Source: Patescibacteria group bacterium | GTDB taxonomy: Bacteria > Patescibacteriota > Minisyncoccia > Portnoybacterales > UBA2143 | Direction: 5' to 3' | Length of the DNA stretch: 64,000 nucleotides | Assembly: GCA_018830295.1 (NCBI GenBank) | Contig: JAHJSM010000002.1 | Coordinates: 115,131 to 179,130 of the forward strand | Shown: positions 6,499-57,709 of the stretch, piece after piece | How positions within the stretch are numbered: the stretch's first letter is position 1 | Layout of the letters: every line of letters begins with the position of its first letter | Position numbers and translations under genes: made by a program | The notes under the pieces: generated by a model | What the model saw: the letters and a program-made list of their open reading frames with translations, nothing else | The model's database searches: none | What the model was told of the DNA's origin: nothing

Positions 6499-7635
6499 AT
6501 GCGCATTTCCTACTCTGGGCTGGAAACATTTTCGTTGTGTCCGGCTAAATACAAATTTCAATATATTGAGAGAATTAGAACTCCTAAATCAAAGGACGCG
6601 TTTTTTGGCACCTTGATTCACGAATGTTTGAATGTGTTTCACAATCCCAGCCAGCCCACTCCCCCGCTTGAGGAAGATATTTTAAAATACTTTACGGAAA
6701 AATGGGATAGCGAAATTTACCAGGACGAACAAGAAGAGGCATTCGCGTTTCATCAAGGTGTTGAAATTTTAAAAAATTATTGCTCTCAAAATAGAAAAAC
6801 CGACTCCATTATCGTCAGTTTAGAAACGCTTTTCGCGGCGCCTCTTTTGGATGGCGAAGAAACACACTATATCACAGGACGAATTGACCGCGTTGATAAA
6901 TTGGCCGATGGCTCGTTTGAGGTGATTGATTACAAGACGACAAAAAAAATGCCATCCCAAGAATATGTAGACGGCAATCTTCAACTTTCAGTTTATCATC
7001 TCGGAGTCATTAGCCGCTGGCCTTCTTTTCAAAAAGAGAATCAGCCGATTAAATTATCGCTTCATTTTTTGAGGCATAATGAAAAACTTTCAACGCAAAG
7101 AAGCGATAAACAAGTTGGCGAGAGCAAAGAAAAAATTCTTTCTTTAATCAGTCAAATCAGAGAAAGCGCCTTTGAGCCGATCTCAAATCCTCTTTGCGAT
7201 TGGTGCGCTTTTCAACGATACTGTCCGCTCTTTAGGCATAAATTCATTAAAGAAGAGGAGACGATAGATAACGCGAAAATTAAAGAAGTGATCGCCGAAT
7301 ATTTTGACATTAAATTCAAACAAAACCAAAGTAATAGAAGATTGGGCGAACTTAAATTGGCGATTAACCAATACTGCGACGCTAATAAAATAGACCGCGT
7401 TTTTGGCGAGGACGGGCAAATTACCCGCTCAACGCAAAAAAGATTTAGTTATAGTTTTAGCAAAGTCCGAGAAATTCTTGAACCAATGAAAAAATGGAAC
7501 GAGATTTTAACAATTGACATGCCCAAATTCAGAAAATTAATTGAGACCCTCCCCTACCATTTGAAAAAAGAAATAGACCAAACAAAAACATTAGAAAGAG
7601 AATTTAAGGTGATTTCAGCGGTGAAGAAAAAATAA
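6499..7635 (+). CDS. PD-(D/E)XK nuclease superfamily protein (RecB/Cas4-like, C-terminal Cys cluster)
   Basis: N-terminal Cys (SLCP), IDYK core motif, C-terminal CDWCAFQRYC typical of Fe-S Cas4/AddB nuclease domains. Confidence 0.6.
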   Translation: MRISYSGLETFSLCPAKYKFQYIERIRTPKSKDAFFGTLIHECLNVFHNPSQPTPPLEEDILKYFTEKWDSEIYQDEQEEAFAFHQGVEILKNYCSQNRKTDSIIVSLETLFAAPLLDGEETHYITGRIDRVDKLADGSFEVIDYKTTKKMPSQEYVDGNLQLSVYHLGVISRWPSFQKENQPIKLSLHFLRHNEKLSTQRSDKQVGESKEKILSLISQIRESAFEPISNPLCDWCAFQRYCPLFRHKFIKEEETIDNAKIKEVIAEYFDIKFKQNQSNRRLGELKLAINQYCDANKIDRVFGEDGQITRSTQKRFSYSFSKVREILEPMKKWNEILTIDMPKFRKLIETLPYHLKKEIDQTKTLEREFKVISAVKKK

Positions 7636-8023: not shown

Positions 8024-8296
8024 ATGTCTAAAACAAAAGCGGCGGGGTCTACAAAGTTAGGCCGCGATTCGCAACCACAATATTTAGGAGTTAAATTATC
8101 TGGTGGCCAAAAAGCCAAGCCGGGCAGTATTATTATCCGTCAAAGAGGAACTAAATTTGTTCCCGGCAAGAATGTTCGTCTTGGGAGAGATGATACTATT
8201 TATTCCCTCGCGAAAGGAATTGTTGAGTTTGCCACTAAAAAAATAAAAAGATTTGACGGTTCTCGGAGAGTCGCTAAAGTAGTTAGCGTGAAATAA
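8024..8296 (+). CDS. rpmA: 50S ribosomal protein L27
   Basis: 90 aa; AAGSTKLGRDSQ...RQRGTKF signature. Confidence 0.95.
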   Translation: MSKTKAAGSTKLGRDSQPQYLGVKLSGGQKAKPGSIIIRQRGTKFVPGKNVRLGRDDTIYSLAKGIVEFATKKIKRFDGSRRVAKVVSVK

Positions 8297-9911
8297 GACC
8301 TGCCTTAATAAACTCCAGAAACAATGGATGAGGGCTTAATGGGCGGGATTTGAATTCAGGATGGAATTGAGTCGCCACGAAAAACGGGTGATTTTTTAAT
8401 TCAATAATTTCAACTAAATTTTTCTCCGGATTAACCCCGGCGATAATTAATCCTTTCTTTTCTAAAAGAGCCCTAAAATCATTATTAAACTCATAGCGGT
8501 GGCGATGCCTTTCGAAAATTTCCTTGCGTTTATACGCTTGCCGAGATCGCGTTCCCTTCGCCAATTCGCATTTGTAAGCGCCTAACCGCATTGAGCCTCC
8601 GTAATTCTTTTCCTTTATTTTAACTTTCTGCTCCGGCATAATATCAATCACTGGATACTTGGTTTTAGGATTGATTTCTATCGTGTTGGCGTCTTTTAAT
8701 CCGCAAACATTTCTGGCGAATTCAACGACGGCCAATTGCATGCCATAGCAGAGGCCTAAATAAGGAATTTTATTTTTTCGGCAAAACTCAATTGTTTTAA
8801 TTTTTCCCTCGGTTCCCCTATCGCCATATCCGCCCGGAACAATCACGCCGTCAAGATTTTTTAATTCCTTAATTTTTTGCGGCGATTTTTCGTATTCTTC
8901 CGAATTAAGCCAATGGATTTTCACTCCTCTTTTATGATGCCAAGCGCTATGCTTGACCGCTTCAATGACCGAAATATATGAATCGGATAAAACAAAATTT
9001 CCTGTACTAAAATATTTTCCGACGATGCCAATATTAACTCTTTTTTTAGAACTTTTAATTGTCTTAACTAAATTTTGCCAGTCCTCTAAATTTTTCTTTT
9101 TGGCTCTTAATTTGAATTTTTTTAAAATTCTTTGTCCTAATTTTTCTTTTTGAAAATTTAATGGAACTTCATAAATGTTTTGAATATCAGGCGCGGAAAT
9201 AACATCTTCTTTTTGAACATTGCAAAAGATGGAAATTTTCTTTTTTCTCGGTTCGTCTAATGGATATTCAGAGCGAGCAATAATAAAGTCCGGCTGGATG
9301 CCGACAGAATTGATGGCTTTAACGGCCGATTGAGTCGGCTTTGTTTTCATTTCGCCGATTTTTTTCGGCACGGGCAGATAACTCACCAAAACAAAAAGAA
9401 CATCCTTAGGATGTTTTAAATGCAGCATTCGCGCCGCTTCCAAAAATAAAATATTTTGATACTCCCCCACTGTGCCGCCCACTTCTATTAGAACAAAATC
9501 CGCGCTGTCTTTTTTGGCGACTTTTTTAATTCTGCGAATAACTTCTTCTGGAATATGAGGGACGACCTCCACGCATTTTCCGTGATAACCGAGGTTTCTT
9601 TCTTTTTGGATGACGGTTTGGTAGACCCGCCCAGTAGTCATGTAATTGTCGCTGTGCAAGTCCTGGTTTAAAAACCTTTCATAGTTTCCGAGATCTTGAT
9701 CGGACTCTAACCCGTCGTCTGTGACAAAAACCTCGCCATGTTCAATCGGGTTCATTGTTCCCGCGTCAACATTGATATAAGGGTCAATCTTTATCGCCGA
9801 GACCTTATATCCCTTGCTCTGAAGAATCTTTCCGATAGAAGCGGTCGCGATTCCTTTGCCAACTCCAGACATCACTCCCCCAATCACAAAAATATATCTT
9901 GTCTTTAGCAT
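8283..9911 (-). CDS. pyrG: CTP synthase
   Basis: N-terminal VIGGVMSGVGKGI motif; C-terminal glutamine amidotransferase GLCYGMQ...HPEF. Confidence 0.95.
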   Translation of the reverse strand: MLKTRYIFVIGGVMSGVGKGIATASIGKILQSKGYKVSAIKIDPYINVDAGTMNPIEHGEVFVTDDGLESDQDLGNYERFLNQDLHSDNYMTTGRVYQTVIQKERNLGYHGKCVEVVPHIPEEVIRRIKKVAKKDSADFVLIEVGGTVGEYQNILFLEAARMLHLKHPKDVLFVLVSYLPVPKKIGEMKTKPTQSAVKAINSVGIQPDFIIARSEYPLDEPRKKKISIFCNVQKEDVISAPDIQNIYEVPLNFQKEKLGQRILKKFKLRAKKKNLEDWQNLVKTIKSSKKRVNIGIVGKYFSTGNFVLSDSYISVIEAVKHSAWHHKRGVKIHWLNSEEYEKSPQKIKELKNLDGVIVPGGYGDRGTEGKIKTIEFCRKNKIPYLGLCYGMQLAVVEFARNVCGLKDANTIEINPKTKYPVIDIMPEQKVKIKEKNYGGSMRLGAYKCELAKGTRSRQAYKRKEIFERHRHRYEFNNDFRALLEKKGLIIAGVNPEKNLVEIIELKNHPFFVATQFHPEFKSRPLSPHPLFLEFIKAGLISR

Positions 9912-10694: not shown

Positions 10695-11900
10695 TTACCT
10701 CAACATCTCCAACGCTTTTTCTAATTGCGGGTCGCGCATTTCTTCCATATCTTCCAGTGTTAGTTCTACTTCCACATCGGGCGCGATGCCTTCTTTGTTG
10801 ATGTTTGTTCCAAGCGGCGTGAGCCATTTGGCGATTGTGATTTTAATGCTAGAACCGCCATCAAGTTTTTCCATTTGCTGAACCGAACCCTTGCCGAAAC
10901 TTTTTTCTCCGACAAGTTTAATTCCTTTAATATCGCGCAAAGCGCCTGCTAAAATTTCTGAAGCGGAAGCGGAACCTTCATTGATTAAAACAATTGTTGG
11001 AAGATTCTCCAAAGCGCCATATCCTCGGCTGCGGTATCTGATGTTTTCTTCCCCATTATCGCCAAAATCCTCAATTACGACTGTTTCTCCTTTTGGCAAA
11101 AACCAACTCGCGATATCAACGGAGACTTCTAAATAACCGCCCGGGTTATTGCGAACATCTAAAACGAGACCTTCGGGATTTAATTTAAGAACTTCTCTAA
11201 TTGTTTTTTCAAACTCGCGCGCTGAATTTTCGGTAAAGTGATAGAGTTGGATATAGGCGATGTCGCCGTCCTTGATCTCCCATTTAATAATGGGGATTTG
11301 AATTACATCTCGGATAATTTTTATTTCCTTCGTTTCGTCCAGCCCGTCCCTGGCGATGAGCAAAACCACTTCTGTTCCTCCTTCTCCTCTGATTAAATTG
11401 ACTGCTTCGTCAAGCGTTAAATCGGAAGTGATTGTTTCGTCCACCTTAAGAATTTTATCTCCCGCCATCAGCCCCGCCTTTTTCGCCGGATTGCCTTCTA
11501 ATGGGGAAATAACCGTCAAAATGCCTTTGCGAATGCCTATCTCCGCGCCAATGCCCTCGAAACTACCTTTAATGTCGTCCATAAACTTCTTGCTTTCTTG
11601 AGGCGGCATGAAGACGGAATATGGGTCGTCTAATGAACCCAAGAGGCCGGAAATCGCCCCATAGACCATATTTTGCTTGTCTAAATCAGAGCGGTCAACA
11701 TATTTTGTTTCAACCACGCGCCAAGCGTCCCAAAACAAATTAAAATCAACACTCATATCCATCGGCTGCCCAATGTCTTTATTCGCCAATCCTTCAATTT
11801 TATTAACCGAAGGAATGCTATCCTGCCCAACCCAAAACCCGCCTCCAAAAACAAGAGCCAAAAGCAAAACCCAAACTGGAATAGAAATATATTTTTTCAT
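10695..11900 (-). CDS. ctpA: carboxy-terminal processing peptidase (S41 family, PDZ-containing)
   Basis: signal/TM, PDZ segment, S41 serine motif INEGSASASEILAGAL. Confidence 0.9.
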   Translation of the reverse strand: MKKYISIPVWVLLLALVFGGGFWVGQDSIPSVNKIEGLANKDIGQPMDMSVDFNLFWDAWRVVETKYVDRSDLDKQNMVYGAISGLLGSLDDPYSVFMPPQESKKFMDDIKGSFEGIGAEIGIRKGILTVISPLEGNPAKKAGLMAGDKILKVDETITSDLTLDEAVNLIRGEGGTEVVLLIARDGLDETKEIKIIRDVIQIPIIKWEIKDGDIAYIQLYHFTENSAREFEKTIREVLKLNPEGLVLDVRNNPGGYLEVSVDIASWFLPKGETVVIEDFGDNGEENIRYRSRGYGALENLPTIVLINEGSASASEILAGALRDIKGIKLVGEKSFGKGSVQQMEKLDGGSSIKITIAKWLTPLGTNINKEGIAPDVEVELTLEDMEEMRDPQLEKALEMLR

Positions 11901-13776: not shown

Positions 13777-13811
13777 GGGGACAGTCCCCATTCAGAATGG
13801 GGACTGTCCCC
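13777..13811. repeat. GC-rich palindromic element GGGGACAGTCCCC-N9-GGGGACTGTCCCC (intergenic)
   Basis: member of a family with 10 or more copies. Confidence 0.8.
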
Positions 13812-20364: not shown

Positions 20365-21258
20365 TTACACCTCCATTCCCCTTAAAATTTTAACTCTTTC
20401 TTCTATCGGGGGGTGGGTCATGAATAGTTTGCTTACTTTTTTGCCTTTGAAGGGATTGGCAATATACATATGAGCAGTTGCTTTGTTGGCTACTTTTAGA
20501 GGGGTCGCGTCTTTGGATATTTTTTCGAGCGCTTTTGCCAGCCCTTCGGGATAGCGCGTCAACAAAGCGCCATTGGCGTCGGCCAAAAATTCTCTTTTTC
20601 GGGAAATGGTCATTTGGATTAAGAGAGCGATGAGCGGCGATAAAATCGCGAGAATAATTCCAACGACCGCCATAATCGCGCCAAGTCGTCCGCCGCCATC
20701 ATTGCTCCTCCGTCTGCCGCCAAAAATACTCCAGCGCAGAAACCAATTAGAAAGTAAAGCGACCAATCCGACCAAAACAACGACAACCGTTTGCAAAAGA
20801 ATGTCCCTATTTCCGATGTGGCTCATTTCATGCGCCAAAACCCCTTCCAATTCTGATTTTTCCAATTTTTCCAAAAGCCCTCTCGTCACAGCGACAACGG
20901 CATGCTCCGGATCGCGTCCCGTCGCGAAAGCGTTCGGCGACGCCTCATCAATAATGTAAATTTTGGGCAAAGGCAATCCCGCCGTAATAGCGAGATTTTC
21001 AACCAAGCGATACAATTCCGGGCTGTCGCTCTTTTTAATTTCCCTCGCTTTGCTGATTTTCAAAACAATTTTGTCCGAATACCAATAAGACGAAAAACTC
21101 ATCGCTGAACTGAAAATAACCGCAGCGACCAAAATAACCGGACTCTCAAACTGATAACTAAAAATCCAGCCGAGCCCGATGATAAAAATCAAAAAAAGCG
21201 AAATCAAAACCCAGGTCTTCCGGATATTGCTGTCTTTTTGAGTGTAAAGAGTAGCCAT
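20365..21258 (-). CDS. htpX: HtpX-like M48 zinc metalloprotease
   Basis: HEMSH zinc motif, 4 TM helices; adjacent lemA as commonly seen. Confidence 0.85.
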   Translation of the reverse strand: MATLYTQKDSNIRKTWVLISLFLIFIIGLGWIFSYQFESPVILVAAVIFSSAMSFSSYWYSDKIVLKISKAREIKKSDSPELYRLVENLAITAGLPLPKIYIIDEASPNAFATGRDPEHAVVAVTRGLLEKLEKSELEGVLAHEMSHIGNRDILLQTVVVVLVGLVALLSNWFLRWSIFGGRRRSNDGGGRLGAIMAVVGIILAILSPLIALLIQMTISRKREFLADANGALLTRYPEGLAKALEKISKDATPLKVANKATAHMYIANPFKGKKVSKLFMTHPPIEERVKILRGMEV

Positions 21259-21261
21259 TTA

Positions 21262-21819
21262 TTAGAAACTGACTTTGACCGGCTCCCTTTCCGCTTCGTT
21301 TTCTGTCTCAAAGAAATCTCTTTTCTTAAAGCCGAGCGCCCCAGCGATTAAGTTGTTGGGGAATTGTTGAATTTTAATATTGATGTCGCGGACATTGCCG
21401 TTGTAAAATCGGCGCGACGCTTGGATTTTGTCTTCGGTGTCGGTCAATTCTCTTTGCAGTTCCAAAAAATTTTCGTTCGCTTTCAAATCGGGATAATTTT
21501 CTGACACGGCGAATAATGATTTCAAAGTTCCCGACAAAATGTTTTCTTTTTCCGCTTTTTCGTTTGGATTTTCCGCGCCCATCGCCGCCGTTCGGGCTTG
21601 TGTTACTTTCTCAAAAAGCGTTTTTTCATGCGCGGCGTATCCCTTAACCGTTTCAATCAAATTAGGAATTAAATCATATCTCCTTTTTAATTGAACATCT
21701 ATATCGGACCACGCTTCGTCTGTTCTGTTTCTCATCTTAATCAAGCCGTTATAGATGGCGATTAACCACAGAACAACAACAACCGCTAAAATAATTATAA
21801 CCCACAAAATTGTTGGCAT
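21262..21819 (-). CDS. lemA: LemA family protein
   Basis: N-terminal TM then conserved LemA block (IAIYNGLIKMRNRTDEAWSDIDVQLKRRYDLIPNL). Confidence 0.85.
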   Translation of the reverse strand: MPTILWVIIILAVVVVLWLIAIYNGLIKMRNRTDEAWSDIDVQLKRRYDLIPNLIETVKGYAAHEKTLFEKVTQARTAAMGAENPNEKAEKENILSGTLKSLFAVSENYPDLKANENFLELQRELTDTEDKIQASRRFYNGNVRDINIKIQQFPNNLIAGALGFKKRDFFETENEAEREPVKVSF

Positions 21820-21928
21820 ATTTTTTTATTCCCCAAAAACCAAATCTAACTTTTTTCAAAAAATTAAAGCCAATTTAAGAGGTGTTTTTATCGCTTCTTT
21901 TACCGCCATTATACTTCCAAAAACATAT

Positions 21929-21963
21929 TTTCGCAACTAAAAAGTGTTCAACGTTGAACGTTG
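21929..21963 (-). terminator. rho-independent terminator downstream of groEL (AAAAGTGTTCAAC-GTTGAAC-GTTGAACACTTTT)
   Basis: 9-13 bp perfect stem, 7-nt loop, flanking A/T runs; about 35 nt after the groEL stop. Confidence 0.6.
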
Positions 21964-21996
21964 AACACTTTTAGGTTTGACCTCAATTAAAGAAAA

Positions 21997-23649
<1,653 letters not shown>

Positions 23650-23928
23650 TTATTTCTCTAAAATCGCCAAAATATCTTCTTCTCTGGCTATTAAATATTC
23701 TTTTTTATCTATTTTAATTTCGCTCGGGCCATATTTGGCAAAAAGAACGATGTCGCCTTTCTTAACGCTCATTGGCTTTTTGGGTTTGCCTGGTCCAACC
23801 GCGACCACCTTGCCTTGCTCCGATTTTTCTTTATCGGCTGTGTCAGGCAAAATAATACCCGAAGCCGTTTTGTCCTCAACCGAAATTGGTTCAATGAGAA
23901 CTCTATCAGATAATGGTTTGATTTTCAT
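23650..23928 (-). CDS. groES: co-chaperonin GroES
   Basis: 92 aa GroES signature, directly upstream of groEL. Confidence 0.95.
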
Positions 23929-24008
23929 AAACTAATAAGCGAAAAACAACAAACGATAAATAAAACACAATTATTTGCCGCCCGTCATTCTCCGCTTCTT
24001 TAATATTT

Positions 24009-25010
24009 TTACACTGCCAATCCTGAATCCTTTTCCTCGCCTAATTCGCTCAATCTTAATTGACGTATTTTTTGATTATACTTTTCTAAAATTAATTTTT
24101 CGGGCGAGACCGGATGAAATTCCAACTGCTCATCATTAAAAAACACCCTGCCTCCTTTTTGATTAGTCAGGGGATCTTTTTTAATCCGCCCTTCTTGAAA
24201 TCTCTTCAAGAGTAATTCTAACTTATCACCTACCTTATTGTCAAGAATTGATTCAATCGCTTTTCTAAAAAAACCCAATAAATAACTCGTTTTTACGCTT
24301 CTTAAATATCCCTTCTTGGCAAGCGGATAAAAAAGTAAATAGTCCCCGACCCAAGAATTTTCTTCCTGAAACTTGCGATACAAGAAAGGCGGTTTTTCCT
24401 CCCAGATAGGCGTCAAGCGCGCGTAGGTCTGGGCATTATACAAACTTTGAAAAGGAATTTTGAGCGATTTATCGGTTAAGTAATGATTGAGGCAAAACCG
24501 ATTTTTGGTCAAATTATTATGCCGCCTCTGCCCGATTAAATGGATAAACAAAGTCGTCAGCCCTCGACAAGTCCAGATTCTGCCAAACTTGGAAACAATC
24601 AAAAGGTCTATATCTGATTTGTCTTTCGTATTGTTCATCGCCAAAGAGCCACTTACCATAATTAATTTAATAAAAGGAATTAATTGCAAGAAATAGATAA
24701 CGCGTCGCGCCTTCTTCCACTTCTTATCCGCTATTTTCTGCCTTTCAATTCTTTCCTCAACAATCCCCTCTCGCCCGCGGAGAAAATAAAGCCCGTTTTT
24801 CTCGCCAATCGCTTTTTTTAATTCTCGGCTATTTTCCAACGCATTACAAAACGGGGACAAAAAAGATGGGGACAGTCCCCCGTCTTCGGGGGCTGCCCCC
24901 ATCTTCTGACAATTTATCCCATATCTAAAAATCTCCCAACCATTAAGCGGTCTGTCTAAAACATCATAATAAACAAGAGTCGCCAAAACTGACTTTTCTA
25001 AATGGGTCAT
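24009..25010 (-). CDS. hypothetical protein with minimal nucleotidyltransferase (Pol-beta-like) motif; carries in-frame GC-palindrome at 24864-24903
   Basis: GS-X9-SDIDLLIV motif; otherwise unrecognised. Confidence 0.4.
   Translation of the reverse strand: MTHLEKSVLATLVYYDVLDRPLNGWEIFRYGINCQKMGAAPEDGGLSPSFLSPFCNALENSRELKKAIGEKNGLYFLRGREGIVEERIERQKIADKKWKKARRVIYFLQLIPFIKLIMVSGSLAMNNTKDKSDIDLLIVSKFGRIWTCRGLTTLFIHLIGQRRHNNLTKNRFCLNHYLTDKSLKIPFQSLYNAQTYARLTPIWEEKPPFLYRKFQEENSWVGDYLLFYPLAKKGYLRSVKTSYLLGFFRKAIESILDNKVGDKLELLLKRFQEGRIKKDPLTNQKGGRVFFNDEQLEFHPVSPEKLILEKYNQKIRQLRLSELGEEKDSGLAV
24864..24903. repeat. GC-rich palindromic element (GGGGACAGTCCCCC-GTCTTC-GGGGGCTGCCCCC) inside CDS 24009-25010, in frame
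   Basis: family member. Confidence 0.75.
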
Positions 25011-25077
25011 ATAATTATATTATACCTTATCCTGACCAAACAAAAAAGGCGCTCGGTTTTTTACCAAGCGCCCAGTT

Positions 25078-25794
25078 TTATTCCCAAAATCCCGAAAAAT
25101 CCATATCTTCAGGATAAGGATACGGCGGCTGTCCAAATATCGCCACCCATTCTCTGCCCTTCCCAAGATCGGTAGTAATAGGAACCCCCGCCCGACACAG
25201 TGGACATGGCGCTTCTCTTAAATCATATTGCTCCAACTTTTTAGCGAAATATGGATAGTATTGTTCTACTCCTAACGATTCAGCCGTCTGTCCGCCCCTG
25301 TCAACAAAACAAGTCGCCGCTATAATATTTCCATTAACCGCGTTTCGGAAAAGTTTAGCGACTTCCTTTATTGTCGCGCCGTTGTCAACAATATTGTCAT
25401 GGATGATAAAAGCGGTGTTTTGATAATATCCCAATAGTTTATCTGGAATTATATGATAATCTTGACCTTCATTATCCCTAACCAGTTGGGTTCGGGCAGG
25501 GAAAAATGGAATGCGGATGACCGATTCAAAGAACGCGGCCAATGACAAACTAAACGGAATTGCCCCGTAGGCCGGACCGATAATCCCAACTTTTTTTACC
25601 CCGTTAAATCCTAGACCTAAAGTTAAGGCATTAGCCCCGACCCGATCAATAAGACTTATCAGTTTTTTCGCTCCCATTTTCGGAAATTGCTCTTTGTTGA
25701 TATAAAGATTACCATGGGCATAACCCTCCTCATAAACAAAATGCCCTTCAGCAACCACACCCGTCTCTTTAATAAACTCACCTGTTCCAGTCAT
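25078..25794 (-). CDS. type I phosphoribosyltransferase-domain protein (PyrE-like paralog 2)
   Basis: PRTase PRPP-binding motif AFIIHDNIVDNGATIKEVA; C-terminal CPLCRAG. Confidence 0.5.
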   Translation of the reverse strand: MTGTGEFIKETGVVAEGHFVYEEGYAHGNLYINKEQFPKMGAKKLISLIDRVGANALTLGLGFNGVKKVGIIGPAYGAIPFSLSLAAFFESVIRIPFFPARTQLVRDNEGQDYHIIPDKLLGYYQNTAFIIHDNIVDNGATIKEVAKLFRNAVNGNIIAATCFVDRGGQTAESLGVEQYYPYFAKKLEQYDLREAPCPLCRAGVPITTDLGKGREWVAIFGQPPYPYPEDMDFSGFWE

Positions 25795-25813
25795 AATTTC
25801 TCACTTCCCCTTT

Positions 25814-26698
25814 CTACAAAAACTCATTAATCTGATCTCTCAATTCTTTGGCTTTTTGCGCGGCCGCGGCGGCGAAGTCGTCTCCTTGGCTGGCAAAAGT
25901 AATGCCTGATGAAGAATTAATAGCAATAGAGCCGGGACCCATATAAGCAGCTCTAACGGTTTCTTCAATAAATCCGCCCTGGGTTCCAATTCCCGGAATT
26001 AGGAACCATAATCTATTGCCGACAACTACCCTGGCGCGGGATAAATGCTCTGAAAAAATCTTTCCAGAGCCCTTCGGATATTCGTGAGCTGCCGCCATAA
26101 CTAATCCTGCGTTTTCCACAATCCCCAAACCTTCAGCCCATTCTAATATACGACGGGCCATAAAAAGCCAATACGGCCACTCTTGTTCAGTCATTATATC
26201 CTGAACTTCTCTCGCGGAAGGATTACTGGTATAACACAGGCCCACAATCGCCCTTCCAAGATGTTCTTTATCAACAAGATACTCCATACAATCTTTCCCC
26301 ATATACGGAGAAAAATTCATCCCATCAACACCATCAATCTCAAAATGAGCAATCTTGTATCGCTGTTGCGTCCGACCAATATCGCCTCGTTTGCAGTCCA
26401 AAAAAACAGGAATGTCGGGATATTTGTGATGAATATAATCCACTATAAATCGCAAAATATTATGACCATCTGGTAATGCTTCGTAGTGCGCCTTTTGCGG
26501 TTTGAACATTGAAGCAAATGGAGCAGTAGCATCAACTATATCTCTTAACCACAACTCAACGGCGCTATTCAGATACCTTCTATCAATCCTTTTAGCATAA
26601 AGATTAGGAAGTTTCTCTACTAACGGGTCAAGTCCCACGCAAACCAAAGAACTAATTTTTTCTTGGCGTTCTGCCAACATTTCTCTGAAATTTCGCAT
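25814..26698 (-). CDS. pyrF: orotidine-5'-phosphate decarboxylase (type 2)
   Basis: LVCVGLDP and FLDCKRGDIGRTQ motifs of the OMP decarboxylase family. Confidence 0.75.
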   Translation of the reverse strand: MRNFREMLAERQEKISSLVCVGLDPLVEKLPNLYAKRIDRRYLNSAVELWLRDIVDATAPFASMFKPQKAHYEALPDGHNILRFIVDYIHHKYPDIPVFLDCKRGDIGRTQQRYKIAHFEIDGVDGMNFSPYMGKDCMEYLVDKEHLGRAIVGLCYTSNPSAREVQDIMTEQEWPYWLFMARRILEWAEGLGIVENAGLVMAAAHEYPKGSGKIFSEHLSRARVVVGNRLWFLIPGIGTQGGFIEETVRAAYMGPGSIAINSSSGITFASQGDDFAAAAAQKAKELRDQINEFL

Positions 26699-26717
26699 AA
26701 CACTCCTCCTTTATTTA

Positions 26718-26774
26718 AAAGTTAAGGAACTATTTATTTGCGATTATTCTACCAATATTGATGAATTAGTCAAT
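26718..26774 (-). promoter_or_regulatory. promoter plus 5' leader copy 1 (TTGACT-N16-TAGAAT plus about 40 nt leader with AAGGAGG) upstream of pyrF
   Basis: near-identical 57-bp sequence repeated at 28409-28465 upstream of pyrD. Confidence 0.55.
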
Positions 26775-26855
26775 GTTTTACCTTATTTTTGCCTTTAATC
26801 CTAAAACAAAAAGGCGTCCAGTTTTATTTTTTAAAACCGAACGCCTGCGCTGAAA

Positions 26856-27521
26856 TTAATTTTTTCCAGTTAGTTCCCTCCAGTGACTTTTGGGCCGATA
26901 TCTTAGAGATCCTGCTTTACATAACGGGCAATTTTCTGGACTAACTGTCCAAACTTCTTTTTCAATCAAAGCTATCGCTTTCTGTTCTCCATAATCAACT
27001 GGCAGTTTTGATGGTCTGTGAATTAGGATACCAATTTCTGGCAAAAAATTCACCGGTTCAGTATTGCCTTCCTCTACTGCTCGCCGCACTTCCTTAAATG
27101 TTCCACTAGTGGTAACAAGTTCTTCTATTTGAAGAATAGTTGCTCCAGCTGGAATAGTCATTCGCCGCCAAATCATTCTTTTGCCCTTCTGGTCAGTCGG
27201 ATCTTTTTCAGTAAAGGCATGGACAGCGCCAATGGCCTTGGCTACTTCATAAGAAAAAGTAATAGCCGAATAAGGGGAACCAATAGTCCAGTCCACCTTA
27301 TTTACTCCGTTCTGTTTTAGTTTCCGAACAAGTTCCTGAGCTAAATTTTCGTTTAGATATGGATATTTTAGAACTTCAGAGCAATTAAAATATCCATTAC
27401 TACATAGACCCGAAGTTAATTCCGCATGCGGTTTTTTGGAATTGCCATCGTGAATCCATACTGCGTTGCATTTATCAAACCAACCAAGGATCATCTCTGG
27501 ATCCATAGTGCCTTCATCCAT
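26856..27521 (-). CDS. pyrE: orotate phosphoribosyltransferase-like protein
   Basis: PRTase fold motifs (ELVTTSGTFKEV); positioned between pyrD and pyrF; C-terminal CPLCKAG. Confidence 0.5.
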   Translation of the reverse strand: MDEGTMDPEMILGWFDKCNAVWIHDGNSKKPHAELTSGLCSNGYFNCSEVLKYPYLNENLAQELVRKLKQNGVNKVDWTIGSPYSAITFSYEVAKAIGAVHAFTEKDPTDQKGKRMIWRRMTIPAGATILQIEELVTTSGTFKEVRRAVEEGNTEPVNFLPEIGILIHRPSKLPVDYGEQKAIALIEKEVWTVSPENCPLCKAGSLRYRPKSHWRELTGKN

Positions 27522-27525
27522 AATT

Positions 27526-28383
27526 CTACCTCCCCATATCTCTTCTTACAAACATTGTTGGTCGCCATGGATATTGAATAAAAACAGAGCCAAAACTAAT
27601 TGCCTTCGCGCCAATTTGCCTTAATCTTTCAATGTCCTGAAATTCCCATACACTCGGTCCAATTACCGGAATTGAAGTTAGTTCAATAATTTCCCTAAGA
27701 AATTTCCACGTAAACGGTTGAGCTACTCTCCCTGAAACGCCGCCATCGCTCAAACGAAATAACGGACTTTTTTGGTTAGGAAAAGCAGTTTTCCAAGGAA
27801 CGCTGTTAATATCAATAGCTTCAACTAATCCTTTTATCCGAGGAAGAATTGCTTTAATATTATGAACAACTGAAAGTTTAAGAAAAATTGGAAATCGGCT
27901 TACTTCTTTTACTGCTTGGCATCCTTTAATAATTTTTCTAGTATTTTTCAACCAATCACTTTCGGTGTTGGGGCAAGAAGCGTTAATTTCCAAACCAACC
28001 AAGTCAAAATCATTTAATATAATGGCCATTTCGGCAAGCTCTTGAATGTTATCCGAAAGAATAGAGCCAACTATAGGAATTTTCTTCCTATCAACTTTTG
28101 GACCAATTTTTTGACGCCACCATTTAATCCCTGGATTAGTCAGTCCTGCGGCATTCACAACGCCGCCCGGCAAAAAACGAATACACCTAAACGGATTATG
28201 CCAGCGTAAATTTCCTTTTTTAGGTTTATAAGTAAGAGTTTTGATAACAACCGTGAAAAGAGACGGATCAAACAACTCAACCCATTTCAAAGACCATTCC
28301 CATGGCCATCCGGCCCCATCAAAACCTAATGCCCCGCTCGCCGCGACATACTCAAACCGATGACCATTGGAAAGTTGTATCAT
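27526..28383 (-). CDS. pyrD: dihydroorotate dehydrogenase-family protein (class 1-like)
   Basis: NAAGLTNPG and NASCPNT motifs of the DHOD/DHPD family. Confidence 0.65.
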   Translation of the reverse strand: MIQLSNGHRFEYVAASGALGFDGAGWPWEWSLKWVELFDPSLFTVVIKTLTYKPKKGNLRWHNPFRCIRFLPGGVVNAAGLTNPGIKWWRQKIGPKVDRKKIPIVGSILSDNIQELAEMAIILNDFDLVGLEINASCPNTESDWLKNTRKIIKGCQAVKEVSRFPIFLKLSVVHNIKAILPRIKGLVEAIDINSVPWKTAFPNQKSPLFRLSDGGVSGRVAQPFTWKFLREIIELTSIPVIGPSVWEFQDIERLRQIGAKAISFGSVFIQYPWRPTMFVRRDMGR

Positions 28384-28408
28384 TTCTTCACCTCCTTTTC
28401 AATATTCA

Positions 28409-28465
28409 AAAGTTAAGGAACTATTTATTTGCGATTATTCTACCAACATTGACGAATTAGTCAAT
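28409..28465 (-). promoter_or_regulatory. promoter plus 5' leader copy 2 upstream of pyrD
   Basis: duplicate of 26718-26774 (2 mismatches). Confidence 0.55.
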
Positions 28466-28704
28466 CCCAAAACAACCGCTTGGGCGATTCTATCGCTGAT
28501 AATTGATTTTTCGCTTGGGATGACTTTAAATTTTTTAATATCAGACAAGTTGATTTTATTTTTCTTCAAAAATTTATCCAATTCAACCAAAAGCGTTTCG
28601 CTTAATTGATAAAGGCCGTCCCATTTATGGACGGCGATTTGCTTTTTACCCAGTTTAAGAACCAAGCAAAGTTTTTCTCCTGACAAATCAATAATTAAAG
28701 TCAT
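28435..28704 (-). CDS. hypothetical protein, weak resemblance to TsaB/YeaZ N-terminal region
   Basis: MTLIIDLSGEKLCLVL...IISDRIAQAVVLGL pattern; low confidence; 3' end overlaps the pyrD promoter repeat. Confidence 0.3.
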   Translation of the reverse strand: MTLIIDLSGEKLCLVLKLGKKQIAVHKWDGLYQLSETLLVELDKFLKKNKINLSDIKKFKVIPSEKSIISDRIAQAVVLGLTNSSMLVE

Positions 28705-29081
28705 TTCTCTTTTCTTTTTTTTTCTAATTCCCTAATACCATTTTCGCTAAAGCCAAAATGATGAGCGATTTCGTGCCAGACAGTATTTTTTACTAAATCA
28801 ATTATTTCTTTTTCGGACTTGGCCGATTTTTCTATTGGTTTCTGAAAAATACTGATTTTATCTGGCAAAATATTGCCAAAACCCCTGCCCCATGCTGTCT
28901 GCGGCACTCCGTGATATAATCCAAAAAGAGAGTTTGCGGATTTAAGTCCAAGATCTCGCATTTGCTCTGGAGACGCGCTTGGCTCCACAACAATCTCCAC
29001 ATTATCCATTTTTTGACGGATATGCTCTGGTATTTCCAAAATCGCTTTTTCGACTAATTTATTAAAATCATCTGTTCGCAT
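28701..29081 (-). CDS. metallopeptidase-family protein (DUF1025-like, HExxH)
   Basis: VEIVVEPSASPEQMRDLGL...WHEIAHHFGFSE characteristic block. Confidence 0.7.
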   Translation of the reverse strand: MRTDDFNKLVEKAILEIPEHIRQKMDNVEIVVEPSASPEQMRDLGLKSANSLFGLYHGVPQTAWGRGFGNILPDKISIFQKPIEKSAKSEKEIIDLVKNTVWHEIAHHFGFSENGIRELEKKRKEK

Positions 29082-42408: not shown

Positions 42409-42444
42409 GGGGACAGTCCCCGCGGCAGGGACTGTCCCCGTCAT
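42409..42444. repeat. GC-rich palindromic element with embedded ATG (minus strand ACTATGACGGGGACAGTCCC...)
   Basis: family member; encodes MTGTVPAAGTVP when read on minus strand. Confidence 0.75.
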
Positions 42445-47850: not shown

Positions 47851-47995
47851 GTCGCAGTGGTTTTTTACTGGCAAGCGGACAAACAAAAAAGGGCACCCGC
47901 TTACCGACAGCCCTTTCGGAACTGTCTACTGCCTTTCGGCAGCAACCACTGCGACATGATGATAAGACGGATGCCCGTCTTTATATCGCAGTGGA
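47851..47995 (-). ncRNA. structured 5' leader RNA (three-way junction with two GNRA hairpins, mutually exclusive closing helices) upstream of the CPBP gene
   Basis: 12-bp helix GTCGCAGTGGTT/AACCACTGCGAC; hairpins CUGCC-GAAA-GGCAG and GACAGUUCC-GAAA-GGGCUGUC (minus strand); third copy of TCGCAGTGG at 47987 allows alternative pairing. Confidence 0.45.
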
Positions 47996-48149
47996 TTTTT
48001 TACCATACCTTATAGACCAAACTATAAGGGTTAGGCAATCAAATTGTTATTTGTAGATTAGCATAAATCAGAAATTTTTGGAAGCATGCGAAAAGATTAA
48101 ATTAATTTGAAAAAGGTCATCAGGAACTTTTTTATCGTTAAAGCGGAAA

Positions 48150-50771: not shown

Positions 50772-50816
50772 TTATCCCCAAGGGGACAGTCCCTGCGGCG
50801 GGGACTGTCCCCGTCA
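50772..50816. repeat. GC-rich palindromic element with embedded ATG (same MTGTVPAAGTVP reading)
   Basis: family member. Confidence 0.75.
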
Positions 50817-57510: not shown

Positions 57511-57541
57511 GGGGACAGTCCCCGCAGCAGGGACTGTCCCC
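57511..57541. repeat. GC-rich palindromic element GGGGACAGTCCCC-GCAGCA-GGGACTGTCCCC
   Basis: family member; about 65 bp including flanks duplicated at 59582-59646. Confidence 0.8.
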
Positions 57542-57709
57542 AGATTAAAATCAATAGCCACTTGACAAGGTTTCTATATTTGATATTCTATTATTAGGGC
57601 TGGCAATAATACCTTTTGAAGCGCTCGGGTGTTCTCTCCGCAGATGCGGAGATCATAAAGCTCGAGAGTCCGTTTCAAAAGACGCCGCTCTACAAAAGAT
57701 TCCGATAAT

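Follow-up and report, generated by a model that had tools for sequence, protein, structure and literature searches.

What does it mean that two neighbouring groups of pyrimidine genes begin with nearly the same sequence? The question is raised by a 64,000-nucleotide stretch of a Patescibacteria group bacterium (GenBank assembly GCA_018830295.1, contig JAHJSM010000002.1, positions 115,131 to 179,130), hereafter called the window, whose coordinates are used throughout. All features of the locus lie on the minus strand, in the 5′ to 3′ order orf89, promoter-leader copy B, a gene for a dihydroorotate dehydrogenase (DHOD)-like protein (pyrD-like), a first orotate phosphoribosyltransferase (OPRT)-like gene (PRT-A), the terminator T1, promoter-leader copy A, pyrF, a second OPRT-like gene (PRT-B), the terminator T2, a nucleotidyltransferase-like (NTase) gene, groES and groEL. 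We propose that the locus probably consists of two transcription units, each autonomous, placed one behind the other at a nucleotide-metabolism site of very variable content. That the two promoter-leader copies are so alike is best explained by the way in which the modules were stacked, rather than by selective pressure for a sensor common to both. Both units have one architecture: a promoter of sigma-70 type whose −10 box is extended, a short leader with an anti-Shine–Dalgarno (anti-SD) box (GUUCCUUAA), two genes and an intrinsic terminator. Module A comprises the DHOD-like gene and PRT-A, an OPRT-like gene widespread in the Candidate Phyla Radiation (CPR), and module B the type-2 orotidine-5′-monophosphate (OMP) decarboxylase gene and PRT-B. 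Together they would lead from dihydroorotate through orotate and OMP to uridine monophosphate (UMP).

A repeat search placed the two copies of the direct repeat at 26712-26774 (copy A) and 28403-28465 (copy B). They are 63 nt long, identical at 60/63 positions (95%) and separated by 1691 nt from start to start. A preliminary description of this DNA had reported the same 57-bp sequence before both units; the shared repeat is present, and only its length had to be revised. Both copies contain the 35-nt core TAGAATAATCGCAAATAAATAGTTCCTTAACTTTT without a single difference, and it has no third site in the 64 kb at ≤3 mismatches and 0 matches in 100 shuffles. The copies differ by three G-to-A changes in copy A, which is non-coding, and copy B also forms the last 11 codons of orf89 (stop codon 28437-28435). 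A consensus scan found the promoter TTGACT-N16-TAGAAT in both copies, as had been described, with 10/12 matches and a TG before the −10 box (TGgTAGAAT). The predicted −35 and −10 boxes, spaced within the 16-18 nt of a sigma-70-type promoter, occupy 28464-28459 and 28442-28437 in copy B and 26773-26768 and 26751-26746 in copy A. In relatives, the −35 sequence TTGACTAAT, the 16-nt spacer and a TGn-TAnnAT −10 box are conserved after orf89, non-coding cases included. The anti-SD box UUCCUU follows at 28420-28415 and 26729-26724, and each leader, about 45 nt long, ends in AAGGAGG before an ATG (pyrD-like 28383, pyrF 26698). Past the end of the repeat, the two leaders diverge into unit-specific ribosome-binding regions, located at 28384-28402 for pyrD (SD 28397-28391) and at 26699-26711 for pyrF (SD 26711-26705). 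The unit-specific part of the pyrD leader has GGAGGTGAAGAAATG in common with the related locus L019, and L017 has GGAGGTGAGGAAATG (related loci are referred to by L numbers). The 63-nt repeat would in our model be the island's own promoter-leader, one per module.

The second line of evidence comes from the terminators. T1 (26812-26846) has a 15-bp stem followed by TTTTTGTTTT, and T2 (25047-25073) an 11-bp stem followed by TTTTTTGTTT, with the NTase −10 box next. Both have the paired stem and T run of an intrinsic terminator, and their positions are kept in relatives, with an orthologue of T1 after PRT-A in L024. T1 and T2 align with the terminator found after the last gene of the locus, whichever gene this is, in 7 related contigs, where the terminator is followed by a G..GATAAGGTATAAT box, the −10 box of the NTase gene. 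In the window, T1 is followed by AATAAGGTAAAAC and then at once by ATTGACT, the A being the first base of copy A. The spacer from T1 to copy A (26775-26811) marks where the two frames meet, and we take its AATAAGGTAAAAC sequence for a vestige of the NTase −10 box. Because the terminators are homologous and this box precedes copy A, the locus is made of two complete frames placed head to tail, each with promoter, leader, two genes, terminator and NTase box. The two units, each with its promoter-leader, had been recognized before; their order of transcription is corrected here to copy B, pyrD-like, PRT-A, terminator, copy A, pyrF, PRT-B, terminator. The equivalent promoters would transcribe both modules independently and at similar rates despite the terminator ending module A. 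Copy A would exist because module A ends in a terminator, and without a promoter of its own module B would be silenced. The co-regulation deduced earlier from the identical promoter and leader fits two separate units with the same promoter-leader, and co-expression is a fair inference.

The third line of evidence is the variability of the site. Using the conserved zincin gene as a synteny anchor, 80 metagenome loci were fetched and the window proteins were mapped onto them (a scan of genome contigs with a PRT-B alignment was dominated by the generic pattern of the phosphoribosyl pyrophosphate (PRPP) loop and gave only nine loci). The site was hypervariable in syntenic relatives. On its left it is bounded by the conserved orf89 (28435-28704, 89 aa) and on its right by the likewise conserved NTase gene (24009-25010, 333 aa), beyond which lie groES and groEL. 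No cargo was present in L037-L039, and in the partial contig L036 the NTase gene starts about 60 nt after orf89. An OMP decarboxylase (OMPdecase) gene was followed by PRT-B in L001 and L020, by PRT-A in L031 and by an unassigned 211-aa gene in L027 and L028. The order was SLOG-OMPdecase-PRT-B in L019 and purH-purB-purE-purC-OMPdecase in L032, and L026 and L030 contained an unknown gene and pyrF. Two further loci showed one boundary only: in L024 OMPdecase-DHOD-PRT-A directly precedes the NTase gene, and in L017 DHOD-OMPdecase-PRT-B lies in a rearranged context.

The sibling locus L001 comes from another sample. It shares 99.6% (orf89) and 99.9% (pyrF) DNA identity with the window, has a single promoter-leader, and is without exactly the 1691 bp between the repeats, which correspond to module A. 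Along the region 20365-29081, genes with little synonymous divergence (dS) from L001, about 0.005-0.02 (orf89, pyrF, groES, groEL), alternate with others in which it reaches 0.2-0.46 (zincin, PRT-B, LemA, M48 peptidase). By this pattern the two genomes are a recombination mosaic, the signature of a recombining population. Since the two copies of the repeat differ by 4.8% (3/63), compared to about 0.1-0.4% in the flanks, the duplication is older than the split between the window and L001. We propose that the repeats, which flank module A as direct repeats, are substrates for gain and loss of the module by homologous recombination. Patescibacteria encode a DNA-uptake machinery and RecA (PMC11809585). 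The direction of the event could not be read from the three copy-specific single-nucleotide polymorphisms (SNPs), as a junction at the extreme 3′ end of the repeat is required for gain and loss of module A alike. The situation resembles cassette arrays and repeat-flanked islets, such as integron cassettes and promoter-bearing intergenic repeats, in that exchangeable modules occupy one site bounded by a short recurring element and their presence differs among close strains. It differs from them by the lack of an integrase, attC-like site or transposase and by the nature of the recurring element, an ordinary promoter-leader plus terminator, and general homologous recombination is for these reasons the likelier driver.

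Several additional features of the variable site were observed. In L027 (4686-5321) and L028, the gene for the 211-aa protein occupies the phosphoribosyltransferase (PRTase) position, between the OMPdecase gene and the terminator. A third PRTase was considered there and rejected, as the protein had no Pfam match and its profile similarity to PRT-A reached a probability of 1.8%. In L019 (3504-4067), L012 (4514-5074) and L009 (335-904), OMPdecase-PRT-B shares its operon with a SLOG cluster-4 (LOG-like) gene. In L032, a 69-nt near-perfect palindrome present in two copies 99% identical (6781-6849 and 11633-11701) brackets the purH-purB-purE-purC block, and GGTCTGACCT-type repeats precede each promoter copy.

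In the relatives the promoter-leader is longer. Between the promoter and the anti-SD box it contains a 9-bp hairpin (GCCAAACC-loop-GGTTTGGC) and a U-rich run, and a conserved box, TAATTTGT(A/T)CCTTAA.TTTT.AATA (also written TAATTTGTWCCTTAA), lies just before the SD. RNAalifold predicted both the hairpin and a 4-bp CCUU:SD helix. Six of the nine hairpin pairs show compensatory changes, the hairpin loops are not conserved, and no known Rfam family was matched. A covariance model built from seven leaders and searched in the islands detected further full copies before purB and pyrF in L032, before pyrF in L031 and, as a second copy of that island, in L026, and before the SLOG gene in L009. In L032, the promoter-leader of approximately 137 nt is repeated 3136 nt apart, with aligned pieces 84-92% identical. 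Having one promoter-leader per module is thus an architecture that recurs in the clade, not peculiar to the window. The hairpin has been lost through a gap of about 40 nt in the window, in L001 and probably in L017, which keep the box and its SD pairing; with the hairpin gone and only these two elements remaining, the hairpin-less leaders score only 30 and 19 bits with the covariance model. The longer leader, with a terminator-like hairpin downstream of the promoter, looks like an attenuator. A plain terminator that stops read-through from upstream, or a stabiliser of the 5′ end, would explain the hairpin just as well. Leaders of this kind were located in L019 (3417-3506), L033 (2068-2149), L027 (3689-3770), L031 (7202-7280) and L009 (254-337), and in two copies in L032 (8614-8690 and 11747-11826) and L026 (1549-1634 and 2364-2449). 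They precede pyrF, purB, SLOG and unknown genes, sometimes with two or three per island, and make a candidate attenuator or stabiliser outside the Rfam collection.

A broader proposal is that the promoter-leader serves specifically the nucleotide-metabolism modules of this Patescibacteria clade, as a portable element for their expression and recombination. Its full form would be an undescribed attenuator tuning pyr and pur modules to the host nucleotide supply, and the window would have a derepressed, hairpin-less derivative on both modules. We hold this speculation to be rather doubtful in its entirety. Another view, in which the repeat would be no more than a neutral trace of a single duplication or insertion event, with a box kept only by recent common ancestry and without a role in translation, agrees with the 95% identity of the copies and with the accumulation of the three G-to-A changes in the non-coding copy, as expected for drift. 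The coexistence of strains with and without module A points the same way. However, relatives in which PRT-B is only 50-66% identical and the surrounding leader has diverged still have the box GT(T/A)CCTTAA and pair it with the SD, and multi-copy promoter-leaders occur independently in L032 and L026, which makes a neutral scar unlikely.

The leaders of the window are A+T-rich and have a single helix of 4-6 bp. The SD-sequestering hairpin suspected from the CCUU and AAGG stretches was recovered, UUCCUU pairing with AAGGAG in the minimum free energy structures of both copies. The leader of pyrF (copy A) folds at −11.8 kcal/mol (z = −3.0 compared to shuffles). Occlusion of the SD by upstream sequence ranked first for pyrF (0.86) and third for pyrD (0.62) among the 18 SD-bearing genes of the window. 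The anti-SD pairing was seen in 9/11 leaders, by a reading of predicted structures. An upstream segment pairing with the SD is conserved, by a helix that is short and in copy B weak, and the comparison with relatives suggested at the outset showed a conserved leader box and SD pairing, the latter kept in 12 related leaders. Translation of the first gene of each module would be damped by this partial occlusion.

It is in this context that a nucleotide sensor must be weighed. In that case the shared leader would be a cis-regulator, either a riboswitch, a PyrR-type attenuator or one sensitive to uridine or cytidine triphosphate, co-regulating both units. Such a role would be in agreement with the presence of the same leader on two pyrimidine units, with an SD occlusion unusually high for the window, with the compensated hairpin and U-rich run of the relatives, and with the position of their leader ahead of genes of the pyr, pur and SLOG kinds, as for an attenuator that serves nucleotide genes. 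The search of Rfam proposed in the preliminary description, PyrR site included, returned no family at E ≤10 for the window leader and at E ≤5 for eight relatives; at both gathering and permissive thresholds over the window region and the eight related loci the leaders had no match, and the weak matches were due to chance and lay over terminators. The window leader, having lost the hairpin, offers no room for a ligand pocket in its approximately 45 nt and one short helix. The unconserved loops of the relatives are as for a plain terminator or stabiliser, unlike a binding site, and no PyrR-like gene or leader peptide was found. With such a short leader and no Rfam match, nothing in the window supports the responsiveness to nucleotides envisaged earlier, which in our view is improbable.

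Two known systems help to situate these leaders. Enterobacterial pyrC and pyrD have SD-sequestering leaders with start-site switching. The leaders described here are similarly short, precede pyrimidine genes and contain an upstream pyrimidine-rich stretch which pairs with the ribosome-binding site. They differ by an unrelated sequence, by the lack of evidence for alternative starts or a C/G run at the start, and by the location of the relatives' leader before pur and SLOG genes as well. PyrR-dependent attenuators of pyr genes are represented in Rfam by the PyrR binding site. The relatives share with them a terminator-like hairpin between the promoter and the first pyr gene. They differ in that cmscan gave no Rfam match at permissive E and no PyrR gene was seen, and in the unconserved loop of a hairpin that the window does not have.

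The −35 region also contains a palindrome, ATTGAC-N6-GTCAAT, which might be the operator of a dimeric repressor of both units. Its arms match fully in copy B and at all but one position in copy A, and matches with ≤3 mismatches are rarer in shuffles. The operator was rejected as the relatives keep TTGACTAAT without the second half-site; moreover, the palindrome of copy B is coding (orf89) and no regulator gene is adjacent, so that we consider it very improbable. Finally, an assembly chimera across the repeat, which the many short contigs breaking inside the 35-nt exact core (L002-L005, L007) could evoke, has a negligible probability and was excluded by the linkage, in a single contig of another metagenome-assembled genome (L006, GCA_018819865.1), of orf89, copy B, pyrD, PRT-A, T1 and the first 27 nt of copy A, and by copy-specific SNPs that agree across assemblies. 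The same junction as in L006 was found in the Logan contig L007.

Several points weigh against the proposal of two stacked autonomous modules. Promoter use and SD occlusion are predictions drawn from sequence only. The pyrD leader (copy B) folds at only −4.9 kcal/mol (z = +0.4), no better than shuffles. The alignment of 12 leaders was fitted to the covariance model, which flatters the pairing counts obtained from it: overall, 98.7% of cells pair, eight pairs having double changes compared to 1.8 in shuffles (slid controls, 26-65% paired), and in the anti-SD helix 97.7% of cells pair, two pairs having double changes. The anti-SD helix has only 4 pairs and its partner, the SD, cannot vary freely, which limits covariation. 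The PRTases and the DHOD-like protein are far below the NCBIfam equivalog cutoffs, and their substrates are deduced from context and motifs. No recombinase or mobile-element gene is adjacent to the locus, and the divergence of the copies does not say whether module A was lost in L001 or gained in the lineage of the window. Promoter activity, SD occlusion in vivo, the enzymatic roles and homologous recombination as the means of gain and loss are what we infer from the comparisons, and with these points counted the stacking of two modules remains the probable explanation.

The gene products are consistent with the three last steps of UMP synthesis. pyrF (25814-26698, 294 aa) encodes a type-2 OMP decarboxylase passing the NCBIfam equivalog cutoff (TIGR02127, 150.5 bits vs 110.6). 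The DHOD-like gene (27526-28383, 285 aa, start 28383) encodes a protein of class-1 type with an SCPN cysteine motif, matching PF01180 (68.9 bits vs 27) and not reaching the equivalog cutoff (97 bits vs 269). Aligned with the catalytic subunit PyrDB of the Lactococcus class-1B enzyme (1ep1), also a PF01180 member, it keeps the SCPN cysteine, NAxGLxNxG (NAxGLxNPG), KLS and GG(V/L)SG. It differs from 1ep1 by its shorter length, by GPS in place of GxGG near the flavin mononucleotide phosphate site, and by the lack of an adjacent PyrK partner. Its family, with more than 1000 clusters 60-79% identical across Patescibacteria, is CPR-specific and named 'hypothetical' at NCBI. The assignment of the DNA to the CPR had been left conditional; it holds, identical proteins being named 'Patescibacteria group bacterium' at NCBI.

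PRT-A (26856-27521, 221 aa) has an intact EE acidic pair and CPLCKAG motif. Its family counts at least 591 clusters, 60-78% identical across CPR (Pacebacteria, Nealsonbacteria, Berkelbacteria, Portnoybacteria); the acidic pair is invariant in this family, and the window protein is intact at every invariant column. The nearest solved structure is the OPRT 4paw (E = 1.3e-10), with the same CPLC motif. PRT-B (25078-25794, 238 aa) belongs to a second, clade-restricted and smaller OPRT-like family of about 100 clusters. The two families are homologous over the whole core, including CPLC (hhalign probability 96%, 22% identity). The first seven PDB matches of the AlphaFold model of PRT-B (mean pLDDT confidence score 89) are OPRTs, with adenine PRTases close behind. 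For both proteins the best NCBIfam match is TIGR01367 (pyrE_Therm), at 64.3 bits for PRT-A and 35.2 bits for PRT-B, compared to a cutoff of 150.25 that neither reaches. Like the Thermus/Helicobacter-type OPRTs, they have a type I PRTase core and, towards the C terminus, a CPLC motif, the SCPLC of 4paw aligning with the NCPLC of PRT-A. An acidic pair ahead of the (T/S)TSGT loop is also common to these proteins, although the PRT-B allele of the window has DN at this place. Apart from the low scores, the differences are that PRT-B has no PDB match by sequence and has a 35-residue C-terminal tail (GKG..W..FGQPPYP..DFS.FW). The CPLC(K/R)AG motif, singled out earlier as unusual, is indeed carried by both PRTases and is an ordinary lineage trait, present in 4paw and in the Thermus-type pyrE family TIGR01367. 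All PRT-B homologues examined directly follow an OMP decarboxylase gene of one type or another. Those of PRT-A follow either an OMP decarboxylase gene (L022, L023, L031) or a DHOD-like gene (L024, L106). In every relative examined, the PRT-A or PRT-B homologue thus neighbours an OMP decarboxylase or DHOD gene, and by context and fold we read PRT-A and PRT-B as orotate phosphoribosyltransferases.

The description of these genes as a de novo pathway was an overstatement: the last three steps, from dihydroorotate to UMP, are encoded, and among the window ORFs of at least 280 aa read by eye no pyrB, pyrC or carAB was recognized and none was long enough for carB. A gene for CTP synthase (pyrG) is present at 8283-9911. 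A search of full-text literature found nothing specific on CPR pyrimidine genes, and Patescibacteria are generally described as being without nucleotide biosynthesis (PMC11809585). On an Uhrbacteria contig (L107, 8319-8897, minus strand), an amidohydrolase with a weak dihydroorotase match is encoded near a DHOD-like gene, and some CPR may have an earlier step of the pathway.

The PRT-B allele of the window deserves mention. It differs from that of L001 at 21/238 residues (dS 0.30, dN/dS 0.17), the neighbouring pyrF being identical. For polarisation, 23 differences from P0001, the cluster representative closest to the L001 allele, were compared with 23 other members of the family, and 12 of them were derived in the window. 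These include K22E, D134N and N137D, each against 23/23 relatives, and T140A, against 20/23. The acidic pair of the PRPP loop, ED in the family, is DN in the window, the loop changing from EDIVNNGTT to DNIVDNGAT; L001, which lacks PRT-A, keeps DD and NNGTT. A sequencing error is dismissed because the same allele is found in the independent assemblies L002 and L003. One hypothesis, resting on this one lineage, is relaxed constraint or decay of PRT-B where an intact PRT-A is also carried. As for pyrF, the types found beside a conserved PRT-B or PRT-A are barely related in close relatives (35% identity or undetectable, compared to 63-66% for PRT-B), as seen at L019 4064-4924, L020 4260-4982, L024 1-801 and L031 7353-8087 against 25814-26698 in the window. 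This suggests, from the sequences compared, repeated non-orthologous replacement of pyrF.

New here are an island of variable content, OPRT-like families and types of OMP decarboxylase that stand in for one another, and the undescribed structured leader of the relatives. By this locus, the last steps of UMP synthesis are an accessory, swappable trait within one clade. Among close relatives the same site is empty or holds one or two modules, in which OPRT-like proteins of at least two families that look unrelated, and OMP decarboxylases of several types, replace one another. The locus thereby offers a concrete system for the study of metabolic gain and loss in reduced symbionts and of the use of host-derived orotate or dihydroorotate. 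The conserved leader motif of the relatives is a candidate new cis-regulatory RNA, and three large CPR families now called 'hypothetical' receive the working names DHOD-like, PRT-A and PRT-B.

A few minor elements were recorded in the window. The product of orf89 (28435-28704, minus strand) weakly matches the N-terminal region of TsaB/YeaZ (E = 0.0046). Inverted pairs GGGACAGTCCC-N7..11-GGGACTGTCCC occur five times, with 0 expected, at 13778-13810, 42410-42438, 50783-50811, 57512-57540 and 59622-59650. Single copies of the motif are located at 24869 and 45040, one of them inside the NTase-like ORF, and the motif is also found in intergenic DNA of L027, L029 and L032. A LOOT RNA (RF03000) is located at 47906-48037 on the minus strand (70.9 bits, gathering score 46.4). 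A DUF3800-V RNA (RF02964) at 57595-57692 on the plus strand (66.9 bits vs 37.4) adjoins one of the GGGAC inverted pairs and lies upstream of the gene for a 789-aa protein with an NPPF motif, read as a methyltransferase signature.

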